A stretch of 64,000 nt of DNA, taken from assembly GCA_964565475.1 (NCBI GenBank), contig CAZMFB010000011.1, positions 12,137 to 76,136 of the forward strand. Direction: 5' to 3'. The notes below the pieces were generated by a model that did not search any database, was not told the origin of the DNA, and was given only the letters and a program-made list of their open reading frames with translations. The DNA is from an uncultured Opitutaceae bacterium. Lineage in GTDB: Bacteria; Verrucomicrobiota; Verrucomicrobiia; Opitutales; Opitutaceae. This document shows positions 10,506 through 63,692 of this stretch, one piece after another. Made by a program: the position numbers and the translations under genes. The first letter of the stretch is position 1, and each line of letters begins with the position of its first letter.

Positions 10506-12401
10506 TCAGAGGATGCCGCCCTCGAGCCAGGTGTGCTCGTGGCGGGCGATCTGCTGGGCGAGGTCGTAGCCGTGCTCGTCGGCGTTGCGGCCGACCCCGT
10601 CGAAGTTCTGCCTGATGCGGATGTGCGCCTGCAGGGCGAAATCGTCGACCAGGGTGAAGACCTTTTCGCCTTCGGCGCCTTCGTTGAGCAGCTTCTGCGC
10701 GTAGGCGCACGAGGCCGCGAGGCCGAATAGGTCGGAGCCGATGTCGGCGATACGGCCGAGCAGGACCTGGCGCCCCTCCAGCTTGGGACCGAAGCGGACC
10801 ATCTGGTGGAAGAGGGTGCGGGCCAGGCGGCGCGCCCCGGCGGCGACGTCGTCGAGGTGGGTGGCGAGGCGGGGATGCATGTCCGCCGGGGCGCCGCCAT
10901 CGAAGGGCAGCCACTGGCGGGGATACCACAGCGCGTAGAAGGCGGCGGCCTGCAGGGCGCTCCGGATCCGCTCACCCCAGGGACGCTCGGTGTTGAGGGC
11001 GACGCCGGCGACCGTGAGGTGCGGGTCGAGCGCCTCGCGCATGATGAAGAGGCGCATGATCTCGGAGGAACCCTCGAAGATGGTGGTGACGCGCGCGTCG
11101 CGCATGAGGCGCTCGACGGGATAGGGCTTCTCGCCGCGGTTGCGCAGCGACTCCTCGGTCTCGTAGCCGCGGCCGCCGCGGATCTGCATGACGTCGTCGA
11201 GGCAAGTCCACGATTTCTCGGTGCCCCAAAGCTTGCACATGGCGGCCTCGAGGCGGATGTCGGCGTGCTTGTCGCGGTCGACCATGCGGGAGGTGACAAG
11301 GAGCATGGCCTCCATGGCGAAGGCGTGGGCGGCGATGCGGCGGATCTTCTCGGCGATGGCGGCGTGGCGGGCGATGGGCACGCCCCACTGGGTGCGGTCG
11401 GCGCTCCACTCGCGGGCGATCCGGAGGGAGCGCTTGGCGAGGCCGATGCTGGCGGCGGGGATGGAGAGGCGGCCGGCGTTGAGGGTGGAGAGGGCGACCT
11501 TGAGCCCGCGGCCCTCGCCGCCGACGATGTGGGCGCGGGGCACGCGGACGTTGGTGAAGCGGATGACGCCGTTGTAGAGGGCGCGGTGGCCCATGAACTG
11601 GCAGCGGTGCGCGACCTCGATGCCGGGCGAGTTCGCCTCGACCACGAAGGTGGTGATCTGGTCGCGCGCCTTGCCGCCGACCGTCTTCGGCGGGGTCTTG
11701 CAGGCCACGATCATGAGGCCGGCCTTGAGGCCGTTGGAGCACCAGAGTTTCTCGCCGTTGAGGATGAAGTCGTCGCCGTCCGGCTCGGCGCGGGTCGTCA
11801 TGCGCGCGGGGTCGGAGCCGACGCCACCCTCGGTGAGGGCGAAGGCGGAGAGCTCGCCGCCGGCGACGCGGGGGAGGAATTTCCGCTTCTGCTCCTCGGT
11901 GCCGAAGAGCATGAGCGGCTGCGGCACGCCGACGGACTGGTGGACGGAGAGGTGGGCGAAGATGTTGGAGCAGTAGCTGCCGATGAGCGTGCAGGCGCGG
12001 CAGTAGGTGGTCTGCGAGAAGCCGAGGCCGCCGTATTCGCGCGGCACCTTGATGCCGTAGGCGCCGAGCCGGGCAAGGCCGGCGCGGACGGCGTCGGGGA
12101 TTTCGCCGGTGGCGTCGATGGCGGCCGGGTCGACGTGCTCGCGCAAAAAGGCGCCGAGTTGGGCGAGGAACTGGTCCGCCCGCGCCTTCTCCCCGGGATC
12201 CACGTCGGTCAGGGGGTGGAGCTTGTCCGGCCGCCAGCGGCCCATGAACAGGTGGGCGACGAAGCTGAGGTCGTCGTGCGACTCGCGGGCCGCCTCGGTG
12301 ATCTCGAGCGCGGCGCGCTGCCCCTGGTTCATCTTCGACATGTCGATGACGGACCGGGTGTCCTCGGCGGGCTTGGGCTTCTCGGGTGCGGCGGTGGGCA
12401 T
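10506..12401 (-). CDS. Acyl-CoA dehydrogenase (long, VLCAD/ACAD9-like)
   Basis: AFALTEGGVGSD, LNGEKLWCSNG, QIRGGRGY, IFEGSSEI. Confidence 0.93.
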   Translation of the reverse strand: MPTAAPEKPKPAEDTRSVIDMSKMNQGQRAALEITEAARESHDDLSFVAHLFMGRWRPDKLHPLTDVDPGEKARADQFLAQLGAFLREHVDPAAIDATGEIPDAVRAGLARLGAYGIKVPREYGGLGFSQTTYCRACTLIGSYCSNIFAHLSVHQSVGVPQPLMLFGTEEQKRKFLPRVAGGELSAFALTEGGVGSDPARMTTRAEPDGDDFILNGEKLWCSNGLKAGLMIVACKTPPKTVGGKARDQITTFVVEANSPGIEVAHRCQFMGHRALYNGVIRFTNVRVPRAHIVGGEGRGLKVALSTLNAGRLSIPAASIGLAKRSLRIAREWSADRTQWGVPIARHAAIAEKIRRIAAHAFAMEAMLLVTSRMVDRDKHADIRLEAAMCKLWGTEKSWTCLDDVMQIRGGRGYETEESLRNRGEKPYPVERLMRDARVTTIFEGSSEIMRLFIMREALDPHLTVAGVALNTERPWGERIRSALQAAAFYALWYPRQWLPFDGGAPADMHPRLATHLDDVAAGARRLARTLFHQMVRFGPKLEGRQVLLGRIADIGSDLFGLAASCAYAQKLLNEGAEGEKVFTLVDDFALQAHIRIRQNFDGVGRNADEHGYDLAQQIARHEHTWLEGGIL

Positions 12402-12544
12402 GGCGGGCGGCCTTGTGTCATAGACCGCGCCCGCGTGCCGTCAACGGGTGCCGTGGGATATTAAGCGACGGCGCACCGCCGGGTCGCGGGCTAATGCCCG
12501 CCGGGACGGCGGGCAGGGCCAAGCGTGACGGTCCATGCGGACAG

Positions 12545-12572
12545 GCCCGCCTTCGCCAAGGCTACGGCGGGC
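12545..12572. repeat. REP-like hairpin with GTA/GAA internal loop, just past the GIY-YIG stop
   Basis: GCCCGCC TTC GCC AA GGC TAC GGCGGGC; core CCTTCGCCAAGGCTACGG identical to the copy at 17610-17635. Confidence 0.85.
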
Positions 12573-12578
12573 AGTATT

Positions 12579-12827
12579 CTATTTCGGCCAGAGTCGTTTG
12601 ACGGCAAAGGCCTTGCCGGAATGCGACTTCAGGTAGTGCTCAAAAGCCAAGGCCTGATGTTTGTCACTGAAGGCCAGATAGGTCTCCAGGCGCCAAGGGA
12701 TGAACTTCGAAGTATGCGGGACCAATCCGGCGTTGTGAAACGGTAGGCGCTTCCTCAAGTCACGGGTGTAGCCCACATAGGTTTGCTCAGGGCGGGTTTC
12801 GCTGCGGAGGAGGTAAACGTAGTGCAT
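12579..12827 (-). CDS. Stand-alone GIY-YIG nuclease family protein (82 aa)
   Basis: YVY..YVG motif pair, conserved R, HN, E and YLKS; lower GC than flanking genes. Confidence 0.9.
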   Translation of the reverse strand: MHYVYLLRSETRPEQTYVGYTRDLRKRLPFHNAGLVPHTSKFIPWRLETYLAFSDKHQALAFEHYLKSHSGKAFAVKRLWPK

Positions 12828-12835
12828 GACAAGTA

Positions 12836-12959
12836 GAGCCCGTGCTTCGCTCTACGAGCTTCGCAGGGCTCCATTCTTCGCTCGTAATTTTGGGAGCGAA
12901 ACAGAGCGTCACCTGATTGGCAATGGCAGCGCCATGCGTAGCCCCAAAGGGGCGAAGAA
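12836..12959 (-). repeat. Structured element abutting the tmRNA 3' end; homologous to 63510-63618
   Basis: Two internal-loop hairpins; 13-bp inverted repeat 12869-12881/12952-12964; GCGCCATGCGTAGC shared with the tRNA-Gly copy. Confidence 0.85.
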
Positions 12960-13309
12960 TGGAGGTGAGGGGAGTTGAACCCCTGTGCCCCGGGCCTTCA
13001 CGCACAGCATCTACCTATATAGCGTCGGTTTGGATCTCGCCTCGGGCGGCGCGTGGACGCGCGCTCCGCCTTCGGCCAGCCGTGGTTGAAGATACGGCGG
13101 CGGGGTCACGACGGCCCCCACCGCTATTCCTGCTGTCGACGTTCCCAGCCCCTAGCAGGAGTCAGAGTGGGAACGTGACCGCACTTAGGCGGCCATTAGC
13201 ATTTCTTCGTTGTTGCCATTTGTTTTTTCGAAGGGGGATTAACGAGAGGCCCCCGACTCTCGACAGGCAGCTGCGCGCTCCAACCAAGGGTCGAATCCGG
13301 AACACCCCC
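12960..13309 (-). ncRNA. ssrA: tmRNA; tag peptide (A)GNNEEMLMAA at 13217-13185; CCA not encoded
   Basis: 5' GGGGGTGTTCCGGATTCGAC, acceptor stem GGGGGTG/CACCTCC with G3-U, T arm GGTTCAACTCC, tag ORF ending AA-stop. Confidence 0.96.
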
Positions 13310-13362
13310 GAAAGGGATAAGTGACGGAGACCGGTGTGGGTGACACGCGGTCAAAGAACGGG

Positions 13363-13401
13363 CCCGTTCGACAAGCTCAGGATCCCGAGCCCGGTCGAGG
13401 G
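13363..13401. repeat. Palindromic REP-like element (TCGACAAGCTCAGG type)
   Basis: TCGACAAGCTCAGG-AT-CCCGAGCCCGGTCGA imperfect palindrome. Confidence 0.7.
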
Positions 13402-13457
13402 AGAGGCGGACGGTGGGCGGCCCCCGGCAAATTGCAAGGCCGGCGTTTCGAGGCCGC

Positions 13458-14768
<1,311 letters not shown>

Positions 14769-15148: not shown

Positions 15149-16456
15149 TCAGCGGTCGAGCGCGGCGCCGCGGTCCTCGTGCAGGAAGAAAAGACCGATG
15201 AGAAAGCTCAGCGCAGCGACTGCGATGGGATAGGCGAGGCCGGCATAGGGGTTGCCCGTGACCGCGACGAGCTTGGTGGCGACGTAGGGAGTGCAACCGC
15301 CGAGCACGCCGATGCCGAGGTGGTAGGGCAGCGACAGCGCGGTGTAGCGGATGCGCGTCGGGAACATCTCCACCAGCCACGCGGCCATCGGACCGTAGGT
15401 CATGGTGCCGAAGCTCATCTGGAGCAGGATGAGCGCGAAGAGCGCGGGCTTGTTCACCGGCGCGGCGTAGTGCGCGAGCCCGAGATAGATCGGATAGAAG
15501 GCCACGGCGCCGAGGAAGCTGCCAGCCAGCACGACGGGCTTGCGGCCGATGTGATCGGAGAGCCAGCCGAAGAACACGTAGAGCGGCAGCGTGGCCACGA
15601 GCGCCCAGGTGAAGAGCGAGTTGACGGTCACGAAATCCAGCCGGGCCGTGCGCTGCAGGAAGAGGGTCGCGTAGAAATGGCCGACATACCAGACGACGGC
15701 GTGGCCGGCGATGAAACCAAACATCGCCAGCAGGACTTTCCGCCGGTGCTCGGGCTGGAGGAAACTCTCGGCGAGCGGATTGGCGCTGAGCTGCCCGGCG
15801 GCCTTGGCGCGGGCGAAGAGCGGCGACTCGTCCATGCGCCGGCGGATCCAGTAGGAAAGCACGACCAGCACGGCCGACACGAGGAACGGCACGCGCCAGC
15901 CCCAGGCCTCAAAGGCGGATTTTCCCAGCAGGTTGCGGGTGACGAGCATGACGACGAGCGCGGCAATGAGGCCGAGGGTCGCCGTGGTTTGGAGCACGCC
16001 GGTGTAGAAGCCGCGGCGCGCGTCGGGCGTGTGCTCGGCCACGTAGGTGGCGGCGCCGCCGTATTCGCCGCCGATGGAGAGGCCTTGGATGAGCCGCAGC
16101 AGGATGAGGAGGGCGGGGGCGAGGATCCCCGCCTGCTGGTAGGTGGGCAGCAGGCCGATGGCAACGGTCGAGCCGCCCATGAGCACGAGCGTGACGAGGA
16201 AGGTATGTTTGCGGCCGACGAGGTCGCCGAGCCGGCCGAAGACGAGCGCCCCGAAGGGCCGCACGATGAAACCCGTGGCAAAGACGCCGAGCTGGTTCAG
16301 CAGCGCCGCCGTCTCGTTCTGGGCGGGGAAGAAATGTCCGGCCATGACGGTCGCCAGCAGCCCGAAGACGAAGAAGTCATACCACTCGATCATCGTGCCG
16401 GCCGACGCAGCCGCGATGATCTTCCAGAGGCCCTTGGGGGTGGAGGTGCCGGACAT
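15149..16456 (-). CDS. MFS transporter (MHS family), paralog of 13458-14768
   Basis: Same motifs; GGEYGGAATYVAEHTPD is identical in both. Confidence 0.93.
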   Translation of the reverse strand: MSGTSTPKGLWKIIAAASAGTMIEWYDFFVFGLLATVMAGHFFPAQNETAALLNQLGVFATGFIVRPFGALVFGRLGDLVGRKHTFLVTLVLMGGSTVAIGLLPTYQQAGILAPALLILLRLIQGLSIGGEYGGAATYVAEHTPDARRGFYTGVLQTTATLGLIAALVVMLVTRNLLGKSAFEAWGWRVPFLVSAVLVVLSYWIRRRMDESPLFARAKAAGQLSANPLAESFLQPEHRRKVLLAMFGFIAGHAVVWYVGHFYATLFLQRTARLDFVTVNSLFTWALVATLPLYVFFGWLSDHIGRKPVVLAGSFLGAVAFYPIYLGLAHYAAPVNKPALFALILLQMSFGTMTYGPMAAWLVEMFPTRIRYTALSLPYHLGIGVLGGCTPYVATKLVAVTGNPYAGLAYPIAVAALSFLIGLFFLHEDRGAALDR

Positions 16457-17546: not shown

Positions 17547-17609
17547 TTACTCTTCGTCCGGCGGGGTGAAACCGCGACGTAGGGTATTTTCGGCGATGAG
17601 CCGCGGGAA
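17547..17609 (-). repeat. Second copy of the putA 3' end ([24 protein letters not shown]), synonymously diverged
   Basis: Encodes the same 20 aa plus TAA as 17653-17715; 16 nt differences in 63, all silent. Confidence 0.95.
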
Positions 17610-17635
17610 TCCTCCTTCGCCAAGGCTACGGAGGA
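17610..17635. repeat. REP-like GTA/GAA hairpin abutting the duplicated putA end
   Basis: TCCTCC TTC GCC AA GGC TAC GGAGGA; outer stem covaries with the 12545-12572 copy. Confidence 0.85.
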
Positions 17636-17652
17636 CGGGGCTAGTGCGAAAA

Positions 17653-63509: not shown

Positions 63510-63618
63510 GCCTTACTTCGCTCTTCGAGCTACATAGGGCATGCTTCGCATTCGATGGCGCTAATGATTAAAATATTTGGGCTGGCTGCGCCATGCGTAG
63601 CTGCGCCGCAGCGAAGCA
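63510..63618 (-). repeat. Structured element abutting the tRNA-Gly 3' end; homologous to 12836-12959
   Basis: Two internal-loop hairpins, 10-bp inverted repeat 63540-63549/63611-63620, shared GCGCCATGCGTAGC. Confidence 0.85.
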
Positions 63619-63692
63619 TGGTGCGGGCAGACGGAATCGAACCGTCGACACCTGCTTGGAAGGCAGAGGTTTTACCACTAAACTATGCCCGC
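63619..63692 (-). tRNA. tRNA-Gly(TCC), CCA encoded
   Basis: GCGGGCA/TGCCCGC acceptor stem, anticodon loop CTTCCAA, GGTTCGATTCC T arm. Confidence 0.96.

Follow-up and report, generated by a model that had tools for sequence, protein, structure and literature searches.

Organization of the ssrA locus

The window (the whole stretch of 64,000 nucleotides of an uncultured Opitutaceae genome that was analyzed) carries a tmRNA gene (ssrA) followed, on the same strand, by a hairpin-rich leader, an 82-aa stand-alone GIY-YIG nuclease gene and a third hairpin (Table 1). The tmRNA gene terminates at its discriminator A, with no encoded CCA, and is the host anchor of the cassette formed by leader and nuclease gene: the tmRNA gene contributes its final CCA letters to the outer three pairs of hairpin 1, and the distal arm of the 13-bp inverted repeat is a locus-specific, conserved complement of the letters directly after that CCA. 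The ATG of the GIY-YIG gene lies 9 nt from hairpin 2, and its last codons and stop are probably provided by a hairpin arm of an older leader (12573-12587), the putative right joint of the cassette. The GTA/GAA face of hairpin 1 is on the + strand, opposite to the tmRNA, with hairpins 2 and 3 facing the - strand.

An earlier note, made from the letters of this DNA alone, had placed the three hairpins, the tmRNA end and the 82-aa open reading frame exactly where we find them, and the 13-bp inverted repeat that it described (12869-12881 and 12952-12964) is perfect and overlaps the tmRNA end as claimed. Its hairpin letters were correct, but they had been quoted from the + strand, opposite to both the tmRNA and the gene (-). 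The cassette is flanked by acyl-CoA dehydrogenase and MFS transporter genes (Pfam), and the open reading frames and Pfam matches between these two genes agree with the same note that no integrase gene is present there. Within 12300-13500, Rfam matched the tmRNA alone and placed the leader in no family. No terminator-like site was found between the tmRNA and the GIY-YIG gene, and the single promoter-like site (9/12) falls within the GIY-YIG gene. In six RNA runs, a fraction of 0.20 to 0.24 of words was present.

Three minor features were seen at or near the locus. The ssrA gene is preceded by a tandem pair of similar MFS transporter genes (13458-14768 and 15149-16456, the first confirmed by Pfam). 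A 41-nt hairpin ahead of the tmRNA gene (13362-13402), skipped by contigs in four of the four sequencing runs compared, is a polymorphic insert from another repeat family. The letters from hairpin 2 through the ATG (12825-12835) agree with the sequence leading into two solo hairpins elsewhere in the genome (C13:54736 and C20:2106), from their 5′ flank to the first letters of the stem; the start of the GIY-YIG gene may be a hairpin remnant.

Table 1. Coordinates of the cassette at ssrA and of related features in the window.
Feature	Position	Strand	Basis or remark
Decayed direct repeat of hairpin-1 arm	12512..12526	-	13/15 letters vs 12925-12939
Hairpin 3, GTA/GAA	12545..12572	-	Likely piece of an older gene-less leader
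Likely right arm of the first hairpin of an older resident leader	12573..12587	-	Judged from alignment with G008, G004 and G010 and the joined form in X8
82-aa stand-alone GIY-YIG nuclease gene	12579..12827	-	PF01541
Hairpin 2, GAA/GAA internal loop on the gene's strand	12836..12871	-	Conserved hairpin before start codon
Distal arm of 13-bp perfect inverted repeat with 12952-12964	12869..12881	n/a	Sequence
Variable spacer	12882..12924	-	With arm, 43/48 letters match a stretch behind the gene-less G008 ssrA leader
Hairpin-1 3′ arm and conserved tail	12925..12939	-	Repeated downstream of gene, 12512-12526
Hairpin 1	12932..12962	+	6-bp outer stem, 3x3 internal loop, 5-bp inner stem
tmRNA gene (ssrA)	12960..13309	-	ARAGORN; Rfam RF00023, 141 bits
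Solo hairpin copy distant from any tRNA	17609..17636	-	Same as C11:29745-29772
Gene-less version of this leader, immediately after the CCA of tRNA-Gly(TCC) (63619-63692)	63510..63618	-	

A minimal Slx1-like nuclease

The 82-aa protein consists of a single domain, which bears out its earlier designation as GIY-YIG (PF01541, E = 5.7e-14); NCBIfam assigns it to no family. In an alignment of 48 sequences Y5, R27, H31 and E63 are invariant and Y17 is nearly so, and we take these five to be the catalytic residues. Mutants Y6A, Y17A and E64A of SsnA, reported in the accessible text of PMC11893778, bear on the catalytic role of the equivalent residues. The structure model is confident (pLDDT 96.8). 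Foldseek ranked 1zg2 (UPF0213), At-HIGLE and Slx1 highest (E = 3e-4 to 4e-3), with UvrC at E = 0.43; phmmer gave the families in the same order, and in fold Slx1/UPF0213 are nearer to the protein than UvrC or the homing endonucleases are. Judged by sequence and modeled fold, it belongs to the Slx1-like branch of the GIY-YIG superfamily. Stand-alone Slx1-like and UPF0213 proteins (PDB 1zg2; a Dunin-Horkawicz-type survey, PMC1564403) are thus its best matches in both respects and share the minimal domain. Prokaryotic Slx1-like proteins were described in that survey as mostly vertically inherited, with a predicted role in DNA repair, and the portion of its text at hand gives no link of these proteins to tRNA ends or hairpins.

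GC content at third codon positions is 0.72 in the GIY-YIG gene vs 0.95 and 0.96 in the flanking genes. The sequencing run of a related strain (X10) also carries the cassette, with at least 11 nucleotide differences within the gene; among the differences listed, 9 of 11 are on third positions and one changes an amino acid. Given the residue conservation, the confident model, the low GC3 and the predominance of third-position differences, the gene is real, and it looks foreign to its host and conserved at the protein level.

Homologs at the 3′ ends of tRNA and tmRNA genes

A scan of GTDB returned 199 relatives, the best 80 of which were used as the homolog set. In 53 of these 80, the 600 nt preceding the nuclease gene include a same-strand RNA gene called by ARAGORN (29 tmRNAs and 24 tRNAs of eight amino acids), and none of the 80 had an RNA gene on the opposite strand in that interval. 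Of the remainder, 11 had a T-arm motif upstream, 11 were cut by a contig end and 5 lacked an RNA call despite ample upstream DNA, these last counting against the cassette model. The link of the element to structural-RNA 3′ ends drawn in the earlier note is supported by the 53 loci and the 11 with a T-arm motif. In 59 of these 64 anchored loci the leader starts with CCA-NN-C-TWC-G at the last CCA. Of the 64, 54 use an encoded CCA at this point, and in the other 10, as in the window, it consists of the acceptor CC plus the discriminator; where CCA is not encoded, the leader start is displaced by 3 nt (10/10).

On the protein tree (73 labeled proteins; 82 columns, with many open forks and quick tree methods, Ssn-type rows and five distant rows left out, and genus genomes labeled by inference), the type of RNA gene changed 23 times vs 35.0 in shuffles (minimum 32) and 34.0 in shuffles within phyla (minimum 30). 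Phylum changed 20 times on the same tree vs 29.8 shuffled. Cassette lineages tend, as far as the alignment resolves them, to keep one RNA type, yet they switch repeatedly. Copies at tmRNA genes occur in seven named phyla. The nearest homologs among the best 80 of 199 (72-76%) are mostly at ssrA in records labeled Opitutaceae, so that an old residence with repeated loss fits this observation as well. Two peptide patterns run over 2.9 million viral contigs gave a single locus. The cassette is widespread: a leader that takes its start from the final CCA of the RNA gene (tRNA or tmRNA), followed by an ∼80-aa Slx1/UPF0213-like GIY-YIG gene.

Covariation in the leader and its link to the gene

In an alignment of 29 hand-picked rows (including L032, which is not a junction sequence), 96.2% of hairpin-1 cells pair, and 28 two-sided changes were counted vs 7.1 after shuffling (0 of 500 shuffles, which ignore kinship, reached 28), with only 2 wobble changes. 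By this measure the leader stems covary; hairpin-1 arm counts from the 64-locus count were noisy, and the statement therefore rests on the 29-row test. A perfect distal complement (≥7 nt) of the letters right after CCA was found in 50 of the 64 anchored loci, and it fitted its own locus in 47/59 cases vs 378/2,458 for loci with another arm. An association of homologs with GTA/GAA hairpins, on which the earlier note had made its reading depend in advance, was found: a hairpin of this type lies within 150 nt before the start codon in 55 of 77 loci vs 5 of 277 control windows. The GCGNAGC mini-hairpins of PMC13037366 (as described in the text available) were also considered as the recognition element; they occur in hairpins 1 and 2 and were set aside because they are absent from hairpin 3 and from the consensus of the solo copies.

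Filled and empty sites in relatives

The earlier note would have been contradicted by vertical inheritance of the gene at ssrA in all relatives. We compared the ssrA loci of 17 genus relatives, and none of the 15 with downstream DNA carries the gene; in more distant genomes it was present at ssrA in 1 of 12. Within the genus, 16 of 28 genomes have some homolog, the copy in the window being the only one at a tmRNA. A second copy in the source genome, 49% identical and of the same layout, lies behind tRNA-Arg(TCT). This tRNA gene forms a collinear pair with tRNA-Pro(GGG) in 13 genus genomes, and the gap between them is empty in nine (65-96 nt), holds a cassette in two (440 and 412 nt) and other inserts in the remaining two. 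In both filled sites the stop codon of the gene falls within host sequence that the empty alleles retain.

At ssrA itself, the close relative G008 (tmRNA 99% identical) has a leader without the GIY-YIG gene. From the tmRNA end it runs through a short AT-rich hairpin, hairpin 3 and the linker known from the window into a second version of the hairpin-1 arm and spacer seen there. Similar gene-less leaders are present at ssrA in G004 and G010. In one contig of sequencing run X8, a short hairpin of this sort connects the tmRNA end with hairpin 3 (depth 3.1, 26 letters on the short side); this empty joint is weak, and the contig may come from a related organism. The difference between the window and G008 may represent a gain in the lineage of the window or a loss in G008.

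Asymmetric ends of the cassette

In alignment, the 3′ end of the GIY-YIG gene falls on the right arm of the short AT-rich hairpin in the G008-type leader, and in the X10 contig both positions at which the repeat at 12512-12526 is mismatched read leader-like. X10 also carries an additional insert within the loop of hairpin 3. The earlier description of a unit flanked by hairpins on both sides was not sustained: a same-facing hairpin follows the stop codon in only 3 of 77 homolog loci (reversed in 5 of 77), for which reason hairpin 3 was rejected as a right end, and hairpin 3 matches the gene-less leaders of G008, G004 and G010. Hairpin 3 is likely, from these alignments, to be part of an older gene-less leader displaced downstream by a cassette entering at the CCA. 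Given the CCA start and conserved upstream hairpin, as against the rarity of hairpins after the stop, only the left end of the cassette is fixed.

The earlier statement that there is no att duplication holds for the tmRNA end, as the last 14 nt of the gene occur once in the genome and classical att duplication is thereby rejected, but fails for the leader, of which a decayed 15-nt repeat exists. Leader repeats of at least 14 nt (14-70 nt) just past the gene were found in 10 of the 64 anchored loci; their occurrence is in favor of the cassette model, and their restriction to these 10 counts against it. Among 20 hand-picked regions, G237 and G098 each contain three near-identical leader-gene units behind a tRNA, followed by a further leader copy, with the repeats beginning at varying points inside the leader hairpins. 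One locus (L052) contains copies of the tmRNA 3′ end within the leader and again past the stop (19-nt repeat), so some members do duplicate the RNA end.

Solo hairpins and gene-less leaders

The hairpin core occurs in 29 copies in the source genome and in none when the pattern is reversed, placing the hairpin layout beyond chance. Six of the 29 copies follow an RNA gene at a distance of no more than 450 nt, where 0.19 would be expected; the other 23 are not near a tRNA, which speaks against the cassette model. Of 43 RNA genes (three doubtful ARAGORN calls having been dropped), 13 carry the leader, only 2 of them together with the nuclease. As an imperfect palindrome of 20-40 nt that is present in 29 copies and varies between relatives, the hairpin is REP-like. 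In G008 (91% complete), where many hairpins and no gene were detected, the pattern matched 38 times; of the 30 matches examined, 19 have collinear flanks in the source genome, 3 of these being chance matches in genes, and 13 of the remaining 16 are absent from the source genome. Several solo hairpins are located inside other palindromic repeats.

Across 201 genomes of the phylum that are at least 90% complete (kin among them not being independent), the gene was found in 79, and its presence rose with the number of core copies: 17/98 genomes with none, 20/53 with one or two, 12/16 with three or four and 30/34 with five or more. The 4 of 34 hairpin-rich genomes with no gene match and the 17 of 98 hairpin-free genomes with one are against the cassette model, as are the many hairpins of G008 in view of its lack of a detected gene. 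Both stand-alone GIY-YIG genes of the source genome have a hairpin core in front.

Other hairpins were met in the same genome. Three tRNA-Ser genes and one tRNA-Gln gene (C4:54117, C9:3105, C20:5476 and C31:6470) carry a different family of hairpin trailers, which begins with a short perfect stem directly after CCA. One solo hairpin common to G008 (C1:535053-535080 and L314) is located where an integrase-like gene has its 3′ end.

Comparison with known systems

Ssn (SsnA, cd10448; Chenal et al. 2025, PMC11893778), as far as the accessible text describes it, likewise pairs a single-domain GIY-YIG protein of <100 aa with an oriented hairpin repeat dispersed through the genome, and its authors raise a mobile-element origin. 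In contrast, the SRM pattern of that paper occurs within 500 nt in none of the 80 homolog loci and is absent from the window. Four NTS-linked proteins from viral contigs, used as stand-ins for SsnA, form a separate long branch (support 100), only one of the four gives a blastp match (over 32 aa), and the C terminus of the cassette protein is shorter than theirs. Cassette hairpins, moreover, are conserved on the 5′ side only and are strictly anchored at the CCA of tRNA and tmRNA genes, and the word “tRNA” has 0 occurrences in the main text of the Ssn paper (PMC11893778). On these sequence comparisons the cassette is of the hairpin-linked small nuclease kind and not an Ssn member. Ssn is the nearest working analogy, and the supplementary trees of its paper may include cassette proteins.

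For tRNA linkage and amplification the nearest system is SegB of phages T4 and T6, described in the text available of PMC2330249 and PMC13096335 as a lone GIY-YIG gene beside tRNA genes with no integrase; like the cassette, it shows no overall preference for tRNA type and amplifies in tandem, and the cassette shares with it filled and empty alleles beside tRNA genes. SegB differs in being a phage double-stranded DNA endonuclease with a 27-bp site (PMC2330249; PMC13096335), whereas the cassette is chromosomal (one viral locus, and a copy in the window between housekeeping-type genes), minimal and Slx1-like, with its own CCA-fused leader.

REP/RAYT REPtrons (Di Nocera et al. 2013, PMC3733652) resemble the cassette in the linkage of a nuclease gene to hairpins that also occur solo in tens of copies, and some REPs insert within other palindromes, as several solo hairpins do. 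They differ in that the cassette has a GIY-YIG enzyme (PF01541) and no HUH Y1 transposase gene between REPs, and in that GTA lies in the internal loop of its hairpin. Since the enzyme is a GIY-YIG nuclease rather than an HUH tyrosine transposase, we presume that no covalent strand transfer is to be expected. GTAG repeats are listed for O. terrae in PMC3733652, and the solo hairpin may be one of these families; “GIY” does not occur in the part of that article available. Integrase-type islands at tRNA and tmRNA genes differ from the cassette at ssrA, which has no integrase gene and no duplicated RNA 3′ end. The titles and abstract openings of the literature searched, mostly outside subscription journals, yielded no description of a tRNA-end cassette.

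Proposed mode of spread and alternatives

The cassette is a real, conserved and probably selfish nuclease-hairpin unit at tRNA and tmRNA CCA ends. Starting from the observed anatomy, anchoring, covariation, patchiness, repeats, arrays, hairpin polymorphism and gene-hairpin co-occurrence, we favor, at a probability of roughly 55%, the interpretation that this ∼370-bp cassette (CCA-fused hairpin leader plus minimal GIY-YIG gene) spreads as a selfish element via predicted hairpin nicking and copying by host repair. The predicted nuclease would nick single-stranded DNA at a GTA/GAA-loop hairpin, for which SsnA, cutting single-stranded DNA beside its own hairpin, offers a precedent in the accessible text of PMC11893778, after which host repair would place a copy of the cassette at the nick in a one-sided, homing-like manner. 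Homology within the conserved RNA gene or the leader would create the left joint and so hold each lineage to a single RNA type. An illegitimate right joint would fall inside a hairpin of the resident leader, whose displacement downstream could have produced hairpin 3 and the 15-nt repeat at ssrA. Recombination between leader repeats would yield gene-less leaders and arrays, and the same nicking may move solo hairpins in a REP-like fashion, often into other hairpins.

A homing process of the SegB type is unlikely. The enzyme would here cut duplex DNA in or beside the tRNA or tmRNA gene of empty alleles, with the hairpins as immunity or scar sequences and not as substrate. Phage SegB recognizes the T-stem-loop motif of tRNAs, acts in homing and brings about the amplification of tRNA-segB segments (PMC2330249 and PMC13096335, in the text available), and the fidelity to RNA type and the tandem arrays of the cassette are compatible with this. 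The protein is, however, a bare 82-aa Slx1/UPF0213-like domain, too short to hold a DNA-binding domain as well, solo hairpins distant from tRNAs are polymorphic and track the gene, and a single locus was found in viral contigs.

It is rather unlikely that the gene serves a domesticated host function, whether Ssn-like restriction of single-stranded DNA or processing of tRNA and tmRNA trailers, and is kept at tRNA loci for read-through expression. SsnA limits transformation in Neisseria (PMC11893778, accessible text), and apparent conservation at the protein level, a gene that is always on the strand of the RNA gene and the lack of a terminator-like site between tmRNA and gene would all suit such a role. 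Against it stand the patchy distribution (a match in 16/28 genomes of the genus and 79/201 of the phylum), the many different RNA genes occupied, and the broken copies and arrays; the near-exclusive two-sided Watson-Crick swaps and the opposite facing of hairpins 1 and 2 suit DNA better than one RNA.

A similarly unlikely history is that of an old resident which entered ssrA once in the family ancestor, was inherited vertically and deleted repeatedly, and is no longer mobile. The nearest homologs among the best 80 of 199, mostly at ssrA in related taxa, the phylum signal in the protein tree (20 changes vs 29.8 shuffled) and the leader remnants kept in G008 agree with this history; yet it requires loss in 15 of the 15 genus relatives examined and has to accommodate tmRNA-located copies in seven named phyla, codon usage unlike the host's, and near-identical tandem units and polymorphic hairpins that show recent activity in the element family.

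That the GIY-YIG gene is a passenger on hairpins spread by a RAYT/Y1 transposase or recombinase is very unlikely: the hairpin includes GTAG, and RAYTs process GTAG REPs (PMC3733652, in part), the genome has four Y1 transposase (PF01797) matches and G008 has hairpins with no gene detected, but the hairpin core lies within 1 kb of 0 of the 4 Y1 matches, leaving a RAYT partner unsupported, and in front of both stand-alone GIY-YIG genes, and GTA is here an internal loop and not a terminal tag.

Returning to spread by hairpin nicking and repair, we suggest tentatively, at somewhat short of even odds, that the cassette represents an undescribed class of autonomous mobile DNA, at <400 bp among the smallest known, made up of a bare 80-aa Slx1-like nuclease and a hairpin leader that borrows the CCA of the host tRNA to complete its stem. 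Needing neither integrase nor transposase nor terminal repeats, it would home to tRNA and tmRNA 3′ ends across phyla through single-strand nicks and repair from one side, and would be the missing mobilizer of a widespread family of REP-like hairpins that insert into other hairpins. If correct, this would give a function to many “hypothetical” stand-alone GIY-YIG genes presently assumed to encode repair enzymes, add to Ssn a second nuclease-hairpin pair with another structure code, and describe a route to occupying tRNA ends with no integrase. It is also a testable answer to how short REP-like repeats originate and spread in the absence of an HUH transposase. An 80-aa structure-directed nickase of single-stranded DNA, if real, would be a compact tool, and the window offers defined substrates in the filled allele, the empty allele and the solo hairpin.

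Distant relatives with other layouts

Five genes from genus relatives (L042, L043, L044, L045 and L049; ∼40% identity) form a separate clade of ∼95-aa GIY-YIG genes that are not at tRNAs and are placed between a different hairpin repeat. An integron-integrase-like frame is interrupted by the gene in L042 and L043, and the gene precedes the end of this frame in L044 and follows it in L045. This clade is possibly another nuclease-hairpin pair, targeting integrase genes. Four distant homologs (L331, L335, L336 and L337; E of about 1e-17 to 1e-20) lie behind partial copies of tRNA-Ser or tRNA-Asn and carry other hairpins, some in tandem and preceding an intact tRNA; these are other subfamilies with other layouts.
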